From Acidobacteriota bacterium (GTDB taxonomy: Bacteria; Acidobacteriota; UBA6911; RPQK01; JAJDTT01), in NCBI GenBank assembly GCA_965222655.1, contig CBDCUP010000009.1:391991-455990 (forward strand): DNA of 64,000 nt, read 5' to 3'. The position numbers and the translations under genes are program-made. The first letter of the stretch is position 1; each line of letters starts with the position of its first letter. Positions 52,996 to 63,116 of the stretch are shown one piece after another. Below the pieces are notes generated by a model. That model saw only the letters and a list, made by a program, of their open reading frames with translations. It ran no database searches and was not told the DNA's origin.

Positions 52996-53902
52996 TGATG
53001 TAGAGGCTCGAAACAGCCTCAGATACTACAAGGACTTTCAATACATGGCGAGGCGATGGGCTCAGCTTTGGGGCGAGTTGAACTGTAGGCAGATAACCCG
53101 GGAAATGATCGAGCAGTTTGTCAAAAGACGGAAAAAGCAGGTTTCAGCACGCACCGCAAATAAGGAAATCCGCTATCTACGCTCAGTCTTTAACTTCGGG
53201 AAGAAAAAAAGTTGGCTGAGCACCAGCCCGGTTGATGGGATTGACTTCTTCTCGGTGGACAAACAGATACGGTACATCCCGACTGCTGAAGATGTGGAGA
53301 AAATCATCCTCCACGCTCGATCTGACAAGTGGTTGATGGCGCGGTATCCTGATGCTCCTGATTATCTTGAGACTTTGAGAGACACACTGGGACGCATAAG
53401 TGAGATCAATAGGTTGAAATGGGACGACGTGAACCTGGAAGAGAGATACTTAATCCTCTACACTCGCAAGATAGACGGGGGGCTTTCTCCCAGGAAGATC
53501 CCAATGACTCAAAGGCTGGACGAGATTCTTTCACTAAGGTATGCGCACAGAGACCCCAAAAAGCCTTGGGTGTTCTGGAATCCCCGTACGGGCCTACCCT
53601 ACAGAGATCGCAAGAGCATCATGAAGCGACTGTGTAAAGAAGCCAGAGTGCCGTACTTTCGTTTCCATTCACTGCGACATTCAAGTGCATCCCTCATGGA
53701 CAACAGCAACGTCCCAACGGGTGCGATCCAGAGAATCTTAGGCCATAGAAATCGGACCACGACGGAAATCTATCTGCACAGTCTGGGGGAAGGGGAAAGA
53801 GAAGCCATCGAAGCGTTCGAGGCCGTGAGAGAGGAAAAAGTCTCACACAGATCCACACACAGCGGTATGATGATTCCCCTGAAACCCTTGATGCGCCCGT
53901 AG
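52793..53902 (+). CDS. int: Tyrosine recombinase/integrase of the conjugative element
   Basis: C-terminal R...HSLRHS...LGHRNRTTTEIYLH catalytic motifs; stop codon lies inside tRNA-Arg. Confidence 0.85.
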   Translation: MSVYSIKGKGWRYDFTLKGERYTQAWFPTKTKAKQAEAETRKEVLAPQKKTQTPTDMNFLELVNRKLDDVEARNSLRYYKDFQYMARRWAQLWGELNCRQITREMIEQFVKRRKKQVSARTANKEIRYLRSVFNFGKKKSWLSTSPVDGIDFFSVDKQIRYIPTAEDVEKIILHARSDKWLMARYPDAPDYLETLRDTLGRISEINRLKWDDVNLEERYLILYTRKIDGGLSPRKIPMTQRLDEILSLRYAHRDPKKPWVFWNPRTGLPYRDRKSIMKRLCKEARVPYFRFHSLRHSSASLMDNSNVPTGAIQRILGHRNRTTTEIYLHSLGEGEREAIEAFEAVREEKVSHRSTHSGMMIPLKPLMRP

Positions 53903-53970
53903 CTCAGCCAGGATAGAGCAACGGACTTCTAATCCGTAGGTCGCAGGTTCGAATCCTGCCGGGCGTACCA
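53893..53970 (+). tRNA. tRNA-Arg(TCT): tRNA-Arg (anticodon TCT), with encoded CCA
   Basis: Cloverleaf readable: acceptor GCGCCCG/CGGGCGT, D-stem GCTC/GAGC, anticodon stem ACGGA/TCCGT loop CTTCTAA, T-arm GCAGG-TTCGAAT-CCTGC, ACCA. Confidence 0.85.
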
Positions 53971-54018
53971 GATTTTTCAACGGGTTAGAGCAATCACCCT
54001 AACCGCCCCACGAGCCCA

Positions 54019-55092
54019 TCACCCGCTTTTCACCCGCTCGGTGTTCATGAACTCGCCCTCCTCTAGTCGCTGCGCGTCCCGGACGCTTCTTACAGCGTGA
54101 TCCGAGACAAAGAGGGCGTAGCGCATGGTGGTCTGGATGTCTCGGTGACCAAGGAGATCCTTGACGGTCCGAACATCGACGCCAAGGCGAAGCCAGTGGG
54201 TGGCTCGGAATCGGCGCAGATCGTGGAAGCCTACCCAATTCAGTCCGGCTCTCACGGCTCCGCGCTTGAACGCCTTCTCGGGATTGACCCAGCGCTGATT
54301 CGTCTGCGAACCGACAAAGACATAAGGGCAGTGGAGGTGCCGAACAAGACGTTGAAGCCAGTCCAGTGCGAACTCCGACAAGGGGATGTGACGGACCCGT
54401 TGGTTCTTGGTCCGTCCCACACTCAAGATCCGCTCGGGCACACTGATGCTATCCCATTCGAGAAATAGTGCCTCACTCTTCCGAATTCCCGTCTCCCCCA
54501 TGACTGCCACTAGCGCCGCAATCTCCAGCCGATCCATCGACTGCACGAGCAGGTGAAATTCCTCAACCGTAAGGATACGTCTTGGCACTTCTTGAACCTT
54601 GAGCATAGGAAAGCGAACCAGGGGATGGTAATCGATGACTCCCACCTCAAGAGCAAAGCTGAACATCTTCCGCAGAGCCGCAACGTCGCGGTTAACTGTG
54701 TTTGGAGAGACGTGCTTCACCCGACGCCGAACGTAACGATGCAGGTGGTGGCGGCGGAAGTCGACAAGAAGGATTCCCCCCAGTTCTCGGTTGAGGCTTC
54801 CGAAGGACAGTGCGTACCGATCCCAGGACCTCATCCGTACCTTGGCGTATTCTTCAAGAAAGGTGGCCGAAAAGTCGGACACGGTTGCGGCGTCTCTGGG
54901 ACTCGATCCCGTTAACGTTTCTCGAAGTTTGCGCCATGTGCCCTCGATGATGGCGGCCTCGATACGAGAGAGAGTCCGCTTGGCTACTTTGGGGTTGGGA
55001 TAGAATCGCCTGAACTCCTTTCCGTCCGGCCAGCGCTTCCTCACCTCGATCTTGGGAGCGCCCTTGCGATATTTGACCCGGTTAATTGCCAT
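54019..55092 (-). CDS. int: Tyrosine recombinase/integrase of second element
   Basis: GFHDLRRFRATHW...LLGHRDIQTTMRYA catalytic region; convergent on tRNA 3' end. Confidence 0.85.
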   Translation of the reverse strand: MAINRVKYRKGAPKIEVRKRWPDGKEFRRFYPNPKVAKRTLSRIEAAIIEGTWRKLRETLTGSSPRDAATVSDFSATFLEEYAKVRMRSWDRYALSFGSLNRELGGILLVDFRRHHLHRYVRRRVKHVSPNTVNRDVAALRKMFSFALEVGVIDYHPLVRFPMLKVQEVPRRILTVEEFHLLVQSMDRLEIAALVAVMGETGIRKSEALFLEWDSISVPERILSVGRTKNQRVRHIPLSEFALDWLQRLVRHLHCPYVFVGSQTNQRWVNPEKAFKRGAVRAGLNWVGFHDLRRFRATHWLRLGVDVRTVKDLLGHRDIQTTMRYALFVSDHAVRSVRDAQRLEEGEFMNTERVKSG

Positions 55093-61411: not shown

Positions 61412-61843
61412 TCATCTGATGAGTGTTGCAGCACTCGTCTCTCTAGCGTCTTGTCTGTCAGGCTCTGGCAGCAGCCTGCCTATGCCACGCCCGATCGCAT
61501 GTAGCGTCTTCTGCTCTTTGATGTTCTCTCTGAGCACCGCGAGGATGCCCCCAACGAGCGTCGAGATCTCTGCAGCGCTGACCATCATTTCGCTATCTTG
61601 CATACGCTTGTTCTCGCTCTCGACGAGACTCTTCTTGCGATCCATCCACTCACCGAGATTGTGCCAGATGTCTTGCTCGTCGTGGATCTCAGCGAGCAGG
61701 TGCTCGAACTGATTGAGCACGTCGAGAAAGCCGTCGCTGTCGAGTCCCTTCGCTACAGCGGCTTTGGCGTTGCGAACGCTCTTGGCCGAAGGGAGACTGC
61801 TAAACTCCGAGATCATGAAAAGAAGAACCTTCCTGAAGAAGAC
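61412..61843 (-). CDS. Hypothetical protein (start uncertain; ORF tool extends to 61978, which overlaps the next gene)
   Basis: Acidic helical ORF; internal Met chosen to limit overlap. Confidence 0.25.
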   Translation of the reverse strand, partial: VFFRKVLLFMISEFSSLPSAKSVRNAKAAVAKGLDSDGFLDVLNQFEHLLAEIHDEQDIWHNLGEWMDRKKSLVESENKRMQDSEMMVSAAEISTLVGGILAVLRENIKEQKTLHAIGRGIGRLLPEPDRQDARETSAATLIR

Positions 61844-63008
61844 GACCGGTGCCGGTGGAGTCGTGCTTTCCTCGCTGGCAATTGGGACTGGATTCTCCAC
61901 CAGCGAATTGTTGTCCGCAAACCGATCCTCGGAGGCGTCCGATAAAGGAAAGAGTCCCATCAGAGTCGGGGTCATCACCCAAAAGGGCGGGCCTCACCTG
62001 AGTATCTACCTCAAGGCCCTGGCGGCGAGTGAAGGTTTGGCGGGGTTGGCCATTTCGGATGAGAGTGGTGCAACCTTCGAGCAGGCCGAGAGCTCGCTGG
62101 GCCAGCGGTTTCCGAATCTAGGGAAGTTTCGAGACTATCGCAACATGATCGAAAAGTTCAAGCCGCAGATGGTGCTCATCTCTCTGGAGGCACATCTCGC
62201 ACCGGATCGAATCCGGCGGGCACTGGAAGGAAACTGCAGCGTCCTGGCCGAGAAGCCGGCTTGTGTGCGGGCGGAAGATTTCGAGCCTCTGGTAGAGCTG
62301 GCCGAATCCAGGAATCTACACCTGATGCTGGCTCTTCCCGGACGGCTGCATCCCTCGGCGATCAAGGCGAAGGAGTTGATCCGTTCTGGATTTTTGGGAA
62401 AGCTCTATGGCACCCAGGTATTCCAGGTCAAGGACCAGACGCGCTTGACCCGTGTCAGCTATCACGACTCCTGGTTCGCCTTCAAGAACAAGGCCGGAGG
62501 AGGGCATCTGATCTGGTTGGGAATACACAACTTGGATCTGATTCAGTACCTGGCCGACGATCCCATCGCCAAGGTGTCCGCAGTTTGCAGGAATGTAGGA
62601 GGTCAACCGGTCGAAATCGAGGACGCGGAAGCATTGGCGTTCCAGTTCAAGAGCGGAATGGTTGGCACCTTTCATGGTGGCTACTATCTCGAGCAGGGGG
62701 GGACCCAATCCGCACTGACCATTTGGGGCTCGAAGGGTTGGCTTCGAATGAGTGCTTCTCGACACAAATCCGAGTCGCAGCAGCGGTTGGATTGGCAGTC
62801 GACACACCCCGATGCGCCGGAAGGGATCCAAACGATCCCTCTCCCAACTGGCATCAACAGCTACCAACTCCTGGTGCAGGCAGCGATCAAGGCCTCGGCA
62901 GGGACGGAAGAGGCCCCTCTAACAGGTCGGGATTGCCTACAGGTGCTCCGAGTGATCTTCGGTGCCTATCGCTCCTCGGAGACCGGACGAGAGCAGAGCA
63001 TCGGCTGA
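61815..63008 (+). CDS. Gfo/Idh/MocA-family oxidoreductase with Tat signal
   Basis: MKRRTFLKKTTGAGGVVLSS Tat motif; IRVGVI Rossmann; EKP motif; paralogous in type to 23090-24781. Confidence 0.75.
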   Translation: MKRRTFLKKTTGAGGVVLSSLAIGTGFSTSELLSANRSSEASDKGKSPIRVGVITQKGGPHLSIYLKALAASEGLAGLAISDESGATFEQAESSLGQRFPNLGKFRDYRNMIEKFKPQMVLISLEAHLAPDRIRRALEGNCSVLAEKPACVRAEDFEPLVELAESRNLHLMLALPGRLHPSAIKAKELIRSGFLGKLYGTQVFQVKDQTRLTRVSYHDSWFAFKNKAGGGHLIWLGIHNLDLIQYLADDPIAKVSAVCRNVGGQPVEIEDAEALAFQFKSGMVGTFHGGYYLEQGGTQSALTIWGSKGWLRMSASRHKSESQQRLDWQSTHPDAPEGIQTIPLPTGINSYQLLVQAAIKASAGTEEAPLTGRDCLQVLRVIFGAYRSSETGREQSIG

Positions 63009-63075
63009 TCGCCTGTGCCCTTTCGTCAGGAAAGCATTACGCTCTCTCCAACCGAAAGTTCTGTAAGATACTCCC

Positions 63076-63116
63076 CGGGCGCCCGTAGCTCAGCTGGATA
63101 GAGCAACGGACTTCTA
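63076..63116 (+). other. 41-nt imperfect direct repeat of tRNA-Arg(TCT) 5' half (acceptor to anticodon loop); attachment-site remnant or pseudo-tRNA
   Basis: GCGCCCGTAGCTCAGCTGGATAGAGCAACGGACTTCTAAT matches 53893-53933 except CCAGG vs CTGG; diverges after anticodon loop. Confidence 0.6.

Follow-up and report, generated by a model that had tools for sequence, protein, structure and literature searches.

Toward the right-hand end of a 64,000-nucleotide (nt) stretch of contig CBDCUP010000009.1, referred to below as the window, lies an intact gene for tRNA-Arg(TCT) on which two tyrosine integrase genes converge. The first of these, int1, stands at the right end of an integrative and conjugative element (ICE) to the left of the tRNA gene; the second, int2, belongs to a small element, here called E2, on the 3' side of that gene. 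Beyond E2 come a GFO/IDH/MocA oxidoreductase gene (GFO) and then a stray copy of the 5' half of the tRNA gene, after which different DNA begins (Table 1). The origin of this half copy, and the integrase responsible for it, are the subject of this report. The window was annotated with ARAGORN and Rfam for tRNA genes and with Pfam and PHROGs for open reading frames (ORFs), the repeat was aligned with blastn-short, and the locus was compared with related contigs (designated by L numbers), many of which are long-read metagenome contigs of the same species, retrieved by exact-protein look-up and 97.7-100% identical over shared DNA.

Nucleotides 1-41 of the tRNA gene (53893-53933) align with the fragment at 39 identities, with one C/T mismatch and a 1-nt gap (blastn-short E = 7e-11 within the window), and the 39-nt pattern of this repeat had 0 matches in 100 shuffles. 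The D-loop reads CCAGG in the intact gene and CTGG in the fragment (GCTCAGCCAGGAT versus GCTCAGCT-GGAT), both copies are identical over 23 nt, GGATAGAGCAACGGACTTCTAAT, and the match stops past the anticodon loop, at CTTCTAAT. The preliminary description of this DNA had recognised the direct repeat of the 5' half, its CCAGG/CTGG difference and the divergence that follows, all of which the alignment confirms; it had placed the left copy correctly and had set the right one, given as 63076-63116, about 3 nt too far to the left. It had also noted the convergent integrases, and both ORFs do match PF00589.

No second copy of the tRNA 3' half exists anywhere in the window, nor does one occur in the 10 kb past the window end in four related contigs. 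Across the loci that hold the fragment, GFO is always upstream and a 3' half never downstream (13 of 13), and every stranded fragment is of the CTGG form and ends at CTTCTAAT. The suggestion that the fragment might be a divergent tRNA gene completed downstream therefore fails within that range. Nor do we give practical credence to the idea that it belongs to a split or intron-containing tRNA, as a 5' exon or 5' half whose remainder lies elsewhere, even if the match does end near the canonical intron position, after the anticodon loop. Apart from the missing 3' half, the context is bacterial, with GWxTD, TonB-type outer-membrane protein (OMP) and type IV secretion system (T4SS) genes and the closest labelled metagenome-assembled genome (MAG) all pointing to Acidobacteriota, and in L005 and L007 the same 5' half is joined to a normal 3' half at the GFO flank.

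The two integrases approach the tRNA gene in different ways. The int2 gene adjoins the 3' end convergently, ending 49 nt past it with an Xis-like gene upstream, which is the canonical arrangement. The int1 gene, in contrast, runs in the same direction as the tRNA gene, and its stop codon falls 10 nt inside it. An Xis/AlpA-like HTH_17 ORF lies directly 5' of int1 and overlaps its start, and it is kept upstream of the int1 homologues in L019, L020, L026 and L027, so that the right end of the ICE bears an integrase/excisionase module. Throughout a family alignment of 20 sequences the catalytic residues of int1 (R201, K226, H292, R295, H318 and Y327) stay unchanged, and the protein shares just 27% identity with int2.

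Related contigs present this locus in four arrangements. In arrangement A (L005, L007 and L030), a chromosomal flank with SBP_bac_5 and GFO-like genes leads into GFO, a 77-nt tRNA gene with CTGG, E2, a further GFO, the fragment and a gene for a protein of 165 amino acids (aa). Arrangement B, that of the window, L002/L029 and L003/L031, consists of the ICE, int1, the 78-nt tRNA gene with CCAGG, E2, GFO, the fragment and the 165-aa gene. In arrangement C (L010-L014) the ICE, int1 and the 78-nt tRNA gene lead, without E2, into a different and presumably native flank (GTCTTTTCAACGACTTGCAGCGG). Arrangement D (L006 and L008) also lacks E2, the chromosomal flank running through GFO into the fragment and the same following arm, with no tRNA within 21 kb; L009 has the same left flank and ends within the fragment. 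L006 is a long-read contig at 28.75x, and the other E2-free contigs, L008 included, come from low-coverage short-read assemblies.

When arrangements A and B are compared, they are identical from the anticodon loop rightwards, and it is the upstream DNA and the D-loop that differ with the ICE. Beside int1 the 5' half reads CCAGGAT in the window and L010-L014, CCAGGAC in L002 and L003, CCCGG at the homologue in a MAG at 90% identity, TAGG at one at 86%, and CTGG in L027, and the intact tRNA gene linked to GFO is the 77-nt form with CTGG. Position 72/73 of the tRNA gene and the downstream flank vary with host context, not with the int1 variant. This comparison supports the earlier proposal of successive integrations at a tRNA-Arg(TCT) hotspot. 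In L010-L014 the flank 3' of the tRNA gene is conserved for about 100-390 nt and then gives way to RVT_1/BNR genes, to a 257-aa gene with insertion sequences (IS), or to other DNA, which suggests further variable islands 3' of the tRNA gene even where E2 is absent.

Mis-joins typically occur at features such as the 40-nt and 1.3-kb repeats and the numerous IS copies, and some of the related contigs break off within the ICE or the island, so an assembly that was wrongly joined across the tRNA or GFO repeat could in principle have produced the arrangement. Against this, the order seen in the window recurs in L002/L029 and in L003/L031, two long-read assemblies made independently from separate samples, and the L005-type order was found in three samples. 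We accordingly see only the slightest chance that the arrangement is an artefact.

The preliminary description held that the half-tRNA repeat brackets E2, and a reading in which the two copies are attL and attR of an element spanning 53934-63118, with int2 as the exchanger of 5' halves, follows naturally from what the window displays: direct repeats do bracket E2, int2 adjoins the tRNA gene, and L005 and L007 do repeat the 5' half at both E2 ends. In these ICE-free relatives, however, the repeat is 1,333 bp long and takes in a whole gene. Starting 28 nt before the GFO start codon, it spans that gene, the intergenic DNA and the tRNA 5' half as far as the anticodon loop; in L005 its copies (9973-11305 and 19304-20636) are 99.9% identical, and the left copies of L005 and L007 are 100% identical to window 61787-63118. 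Because of this longer repeat, and because the fragment is present without E2 in L006, E2 is not delimited by the half-tRNA repeat; the 41-nt repeat alone is visible in the window because the DNA left of the tRNA gene has been replaced by the ICE. Excision between the half copies would, moreover, leave GFO, a 5' half and non-tRNA DNA, with no tRNA gene at all; int2 is oriented canonically toward the tRNA 3' end; and the D-loop difference of the left copy tracks int1, not int2. Comparison with related contigs thus places the ends of E2 elsewhere, as the fragments kept without E2 in L006 and L008 also indicate, and the notion that int2 made the repeats is largely refuted and in our judgement highly improbable.

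What, then, is the right-hand boundary of E2? At the inner junction (61786/61787) an E2 ORF has lost its 5' end, and all recovered copies of E2 share this junction. Neither an att-like sequence nor microhomology was found at the junction between the E2 core and GFO, and no repeat of the tRNA 3' part was found at the distal end of E2 in the window or in any E2-bearing locus. The boundary is an illegitimate junction, not an att site, and one that probably arose once. Two routes to it can be envisaged. An aberrantly excised E2 circle, carrying GFO, the intact tRNA gene, int2 and the core, might have re-entered a locus consisting of GFO and the fragment by way of the 1.3-kb homology. Alternatively, the junction could be the joint of a tandem duplication or circle comprising GFO, the fragment, the island or ICE, int1, the tRNA gene and E2, and this second route would yield the gene order of the window directly. 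The ICE-borne single-nucleotide polymorphism in the D-loop and the variant of the arm that follows the fragment shift together between the window and L002/L003, which fits the second route, if weakly.

The orientation of int1 is characteristic of its immediate lineage. There are 1,311 homologues at E <= 1e-30, and integrases at least 86% identical to int1 are co-directional with the tRNA gene and abut its 5' end in every contig recovered. The arrangement occurs in L010-L014, L026 and L027 and also in two MAGs of GTDB (86% and 90% identity), of which one bears the label Acidobacteriota; among labelled genomes that carry an int1 homologue, the closest is a MAG from Acidobacteriota. Read-through tails, ending in …DAPVAQPG before the stop codon, give the same arrangement for P0008 (77% identity) and P0009 (69%). 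Relatives at 41-60% identity with a nearby tRNA show the opposite polarity, and in all those examined the integrase is convergent on the tRNA 3' end in the canonical manner. Two such cousins, P0025 (60%) and P0038 (58%), are both at tRNA-Arg(TCT), and other canonical relatives are found at tRNA-Lys, tRNA-Leu, tRNA-Arg(ACG) and tRNA-Arg(TCG).

Both orientations meet in L027 (3660-8600; ENA ERZ25072670 ctg248976), where an int1-type integrase (94% identity) lies on the 5' side and P0038 on the 3' side of one tRNA-Arg(TCT) gene. The element on the 3' side is a different small one, with HTH_17, GntR-like and Rep_1 proteins, and no 3'-half repeat occurs within 10 kb. These opposed integrases indicate that the convergent pattern is recurrent and reflects two-sided use of one tRNA gene. 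A scan of JGI metagenomes for the attL/attP junction pattern returned 0 matches, and a protein-based scan of the same resource returned only relatives at or below 62% identity.

A second feature shared by the two half copies lies in the DNA beside them. The pattern TCYCACACRGA has three sites in the window, all of them next to tRNA-half copies, where 0.19 would be expected and none of 100 shuffles reached three. The corresponding 12-nt motif, TCTCACAC(A/G)GAN, is found just in the 3' end of int1, 31-52 nt before the tRNA gene, and in the arm at 63119-63257. In the int1 family the DNA of this motif encodes a conserved SHTxSHT tail, yet within the int1 clade (P0002, P0003, P0004, P0008 and P0009) the same tail DNA, corresponding to window 53820-53905, is read in three frames. 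The resulting proteins end in …VSHRSTHSGMMIPLKPLMRP, in …SLTQIHTQRYDDSPETLDAPVAQPG or in an ancestral …SHTDPHTAV, and two of the three frames stop inside the tRNA gene. Three frames over unchanged DNA imply that the tail of int1 is constrained at the level of DNA and not of protein. We suggest that the 12-nt repeats are arm-type integrase-binding sites flanking a core formed by the tRNA 5' half. The same region contains the only sigma-70-like promoter candidate given by the scan, against 0.3 expected, which ends 22 nt 5' of the tRNA gene, and the ICE could conceivably supply the promoter of the rebuilt tRNA.

Taken together, these comparisons make it likely that both copies of the 5' half are products of the int1 lineage, that is, of a T4SS-bearing ICE which recombines with reversed polarity in or near the anticodon loop. 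We read the fragment as the displaced native 5' half, the core of an attL, and the intact tRNA gene as the matching attR, its 5' half (53893-53933) donated by the ICE and its 3' half common to ICE-free relatives. The attP of the int1 element would carry the tRNA 5' half, instead of the 3' half, directly after int1, and the circular site, of about 250 bp, would run from int1 through arm repeats, 31 nt, the 5' half and 116 nt to the second set of arm repeats. Integration would then generate an upstream junction composed of GFO, the native 5' half and the P' arm (attL; window 63079-63257) and a downstream junction composed of int1 and the ICE 5' half joined to the resident 3' half (attR; window 53841-53970). 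Judging from where the copies cease to match, strand exchange would lie in the interval from the D-loop to position 39, with the anticodon loop as its simplest location. Read in this way, the left-hand site in the window is the attR of a single ICE copy and the right-hand site an attL-type scar, and the pair does not correspond to the ends of E2. The preliminary description had entertained an unusual integrase that exchanges the 5' half, and the lineage context fits that idea; the enzyme would, however, be int1 of the ICE and not int2.

The DNA from 63119 onward agrees with this assignment. A further element had been suspected to start near 63117, and different DNA with features of an attL arm does begin at 63119. 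L006 has exactly the same 138 bp after the fragment, followed by unrelated cargo (YopA, AbiE, SIR2, a transposase and a HerA/FtsK ATPase), and L005-type contigs carry a variant about 70% identical over the first 100 nt of the arm. We take the DNA to the right of the fragment to be, in all probability, a further island, of which the first 10 kb beyond the window were covered in related contigs; they encode DUF488, MASE9, F420H2_quin_red and DUF1318 proteins, a nucleoside hydrolase and a transposase. The reverse complement of 63119-63140 (GTGAAACTCAAAGGTTCTC) also resembles the C-terminal coding part of the HTH_17 gene near 52750-52770 (GTGAAACTCGGGGGTTCTC), and, were it read on the minus strand, the anticodon loop would provide the closing stop codon. 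This match of 19-20 nt could be an xis relic or a shared binding site; it is statistically borderline and was not used as evidence.

Several observations weigh against attributing the half copies to the int1 lineage. No contig has attL and attR around one ICE copy, and an unoccupied site consisting of GFO, the tRNA gene and native downstream DNA was not recovered among the related contigs. On the left side of the ICE neither a tRNA fragment nor a P' arm was found, and the 10 kb that follow the fragment on its right contain neither an integrase nor a tRNA gene. The 1.88-Mb contig that holds L007 has no member of the int1 cluster among the 15 of 19 members listed (nor, among the same 15, does the L005 contig). 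The D-loop variant is not strictly diagnostic, as the int1-type integrase of L027 sits beside a CTGG tRNA gene; a mis-join at the 1.3-kb repeat is possible in the low-coverage short-read E2-free contigs, L006 excepted; and the functions given to the arm sites and the promoter were assigned from sequence patterns. Finally, no relaxase family was detected in the ICE among the called genes and the unassigned ORFs of 298, 304 and 310 aa, in a search whose sensitivity is that of Pfam families only.

Some of these points would suit a different account, in which the genome simply had two tRNA-Arg(TCT) paralogues, one of 77 nt by GFO and one of 78 nt by int1, and the fragment was truncated by an unrelated insertion, deletion or IS rearrangement. 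The region is IS-saturated and rearranged, no attL/attR pair around a single ICE copy came to light, and the right end of the island past 63119 was not located. Such an account would nevertheless leave it to chance that the truncation falls exactly at the anticodon loop, and that a conserved 138-bp module with the 12-nt repeats of the int1 end follows, with different cargo after it in L006. It also sits poorly with the two further GTDB MAGs in which int1 lies directly against the 5' end of a tRNA gene whose 5'-half variant differs from one MAG to the other, and with window-type and L005-type contigs that differ just to the left of the anticodon loop. We regard truncation of a paralogue as unlikely, and prefer recombination by the int1 lineage.

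The ICE itself is well represented among related contigs, its transfer module being 98-99.8% identical in nucleotide sequence to the collinear ones. The T4SS set comprises VirB2, B3, B4, B6, B8, B9, B10 and B11, together with a TraG/VirD4 coupling protein. ARAGORN calls a tRNA-Thr(GGT) of 87 nt at 39065-39151, inside the VirB2/TrbC gene of the ICE; having no Rfam match, it was rejected as a false positive and is unsuitable as an element boundary. On the left side of the ICE every contig has IS elements followed by 3keto-disac_hyd, glyoxalase and TonB genes. In L037 (ENA ERZ25069191 ctg586260) and L039 (ERZ26167216 ctg488792), the same chromosomal genes, for 3keto-disac_hyd, glyoxalase, GFO-like and TonB OMP proteins, border instead on another element that bears TraG and encodes a large HTH_5 protein, so the left boundary of the ICE is a second variable site. 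Given this and the IS disruption, the left end of the ICE copy in the window has probably been broken or rearranged. The ankyrin-repeat coding sequence at this edge contains internal repeats with a 99-nt period (30255-30923), and the ankyrin ORF is split by differing IS elements in different strains (L032-L035).

Table 1. Features of the window, with positions counted from its first nucleotide
Feature	Position	Strand	Basis or remark
IS66	3872-5341		
IS21-like gene pair	about 5500-7000		
Mutator-family transposase	14134-15318		
DDE_Tnp_1_4	28330-29787		
ICE ankyrin protein	within 32845-52631		
IS630-like element	about 31.7-32.7 kb		
ICE transfer module	32845-52631	+	Pfam on window ORFs and genes of collinear L010-L018, L032-L035
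ICE response regulator	34914-35678	+	
ICE ArdC	36520-37614	+	
ICE VirB2/VirB3, then methyltransferase	within 32845-52631	+	
ICE VirB4	40371-42797	+	
ICE VirB9/CagX	42803-43642	+	
ICE VirB10/TrbI, VirB6/TrbL, VirB8	within 32845-52631	+	
ICE coupling protein TraG/VirD4	48923-51229	+	
ICE VirB11	51199-52194	+	
ICE SNase	52191-52631	+	
Xis/AlpA-like HTH_17 ORF	52603-52995	+	PF12728, E = 2.3e-6, 28.2 bits (cut-off 27)
int1, tyrosine integrase, ICE right end	52793-53902	+	PF00589, 2.8e-24
Tandem 12-nt motif in int1 3' end (TCTCACACAGAT CCACACACAGCG)	53841-53862	+	Proposed P-arm arm-type site
Sigma-70-like promoter candidate (CTCACA, 18-nt spacer, TATGAT)	53842-53871	+	Consensus scan, 9/12
Intact tRNA-Arg(TCT), 78 nt	53893-53970	+	ARAGORN; Rfam tRNA, 73.1 bits
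E2 core, small integrative/replicative element, right end truncated	53971-61786	-	3' side of tRNA
int2, tyrosine integrase	54019-55092	-	PF00589, 8.4e-26
E2 Xis-like HTH_17	55082-55339		PHROGs excisionase match
E2 family A DNA polymerase (PolA)	55911-57740		Pfam; PHROGs DNA polymerase
E2 213-aa ORF	between PolA and PrimPol		
E2 PrimPol	58463-60109		Pfam; PHROGs primase-polymerase
E2 repressor-like HTH	60043-60351		
E2 319-aa ORF	60397-61356	+	
E2 5'-truncated ORF	61412-61816		
Right copy of 1,333-bp duplicated segment	61787-63118	+	
GFO/IDH/MocA oxidoreductase	61815-63008	+	Pfam
tRNA 5'-half fragment, 40 nt, CTGG D-loop	63079-63118	+	70 nt past GFO stop codon
Proposed P' arm of int1-type element	63119-63257	+	Two 12-nt motif copies at end, 63234-63256
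165-aa ORF, no Pfam/PHROGs match	63262-63759	-	First gene right of fragment

The remainder of the window, from 1 to 32 kb, is IS-rich and carries TonB-type OMP, GWxTD, TPR and sugar-metabolism genes. Some metabolic genes in 1-32700 are fragmented, MR_MLE occurs in duplicate within 917-2167, and at 3-10 kb the GC fraction rises to 0.62-0.69 against about 0.55. Three copies of a repeat of about 320 bp, resembling a miniature inverted-repeat transposable element and 93-99% identical to one another, lie at 13497-13815 (-), 24775-25103 (-) and 31170-31492 (+). The sites of this repeat differ by strain, one copy being in the ICE of L011 (6255-6553) and another in L003 about 110 nt past window position 64000, and it appears to have been recently mobile.

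The int1 lineage may have flipped the core of attP relative to its arms, so that the ICE uses the 5' half of the tRNA gene and the cousins at 58-60% identity and E2-like elements use the 3' half, with coexistence and joint mobilisation of ICE and satellite as the outcome; we put this forward as a tentative and rather doubtful extension. If it were true, an ICE and a satellite-like element could share one tRNA gene without destroying each other's attachment sites. Joint mobilisation would also become possible, and the window order of ICE, tRNA gene, E2, GFO, fragment and island fits a composite circle that was excised or integrated as one. Related integrases that use the same anticodon loop with opposite polarity make a tractable system in which to study how the orientation of attP arms relates to a quasi-palindromic core, and they could supply an orthogonal integrase pair for one attB. 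To our knowledge, few mobile elements have been described from uncultured Acidobacteriota, and the locus adds a conjugative element and a small PolA/PrimPol element from bacteria that probably belong to that group. There are consequences for annotation as well. Island-finding software and manual annotation expect a 3' fragment downstream, and elements like this ICE are then mis-delimited, as was the case at this locus; stranded 5' halves may in turn inflate tRNA gene counts or be mistaken for split tRNAs. The problem that tRNA fragments from integrating elements pose for annotation is already recognised (PMC9897764).

How does the locus compare with better-known systems? In canonical tRNA-integrating islands, prophages and ICEs, crossover takes place in the anticodon loop, and a classification of tRNA integration sites is reportedly due to Williams in 2002. 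The int1 system resembles these elements in its integrase superfamily, in the end of identity at the anticodon loop, in the position of the integrase gene beside att and in its Xis-like HTH_17 protein, and arm-type repeats are plausible in it too. It differs from them in that the block of identity is on the 5' side and a stranded 5' half lies upstream of an intact gene, and in this respect E2 and the elements of P0025 and P0038 keep the canonical orientation of integrase and tRNA gene. Accretion of several islands in tandem at a single tRNA gene is a general phenomenon, which the present locus resembles in that unrelated elements are stacked beside one such gene and separated by repeated tRNA pieces derived from att sites. 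It is unlike tandem accretion in that both sides of the tRNA gene are used and the boundary between E2 and GFO is an illegitimate junction in a 1.3-kb duplication.

The gal and bio transducing phages of lambda are the paradigm for capture of flanking host DNA by aberrant excision. Like them, E2 bears a host gene, GFO, and a tRNA 5' half at an illegitimate junction, as if an aberrant circle had re-entered in Campbell fashion. In this case, however, the junction would look no different had the whole composite been duplicated in tandem or circularised, and a free E2 circle was not seen.

The closest parallel is with elements of reversed target-gene orientation. Recombination with the 5'-distal part of a tRNA gene is documented, though described as considerably rarer than recombination with the 3' part (PMC6563490, citing Zhao and Williams 2002, J Bacteriol 184:859, and several archaeal cases). 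The int1 system resembles such elements in having a tyrosine integrase at the tRNA 5' end and, on our reading, a displaced 5' fragment upstream, by the native neighbour, and an intact gene restored with a 5' half that the element brought in; the element would then have to provide upstream transcription signals. It departs from them in being a T4SS-bearing ICE, probably of Acidobacteriota, at tRNA-Arg(TCT), with relatives at 58-60% identity that are canonical on the same tRNA. Most likely, then, the reverse polarity is of a kind already described and rare, to which this locus adds a bacterial case carried on a T4SS-bearing ICE; the added point is that cousins of int1 use the same tRNA gene in the usual orientation.

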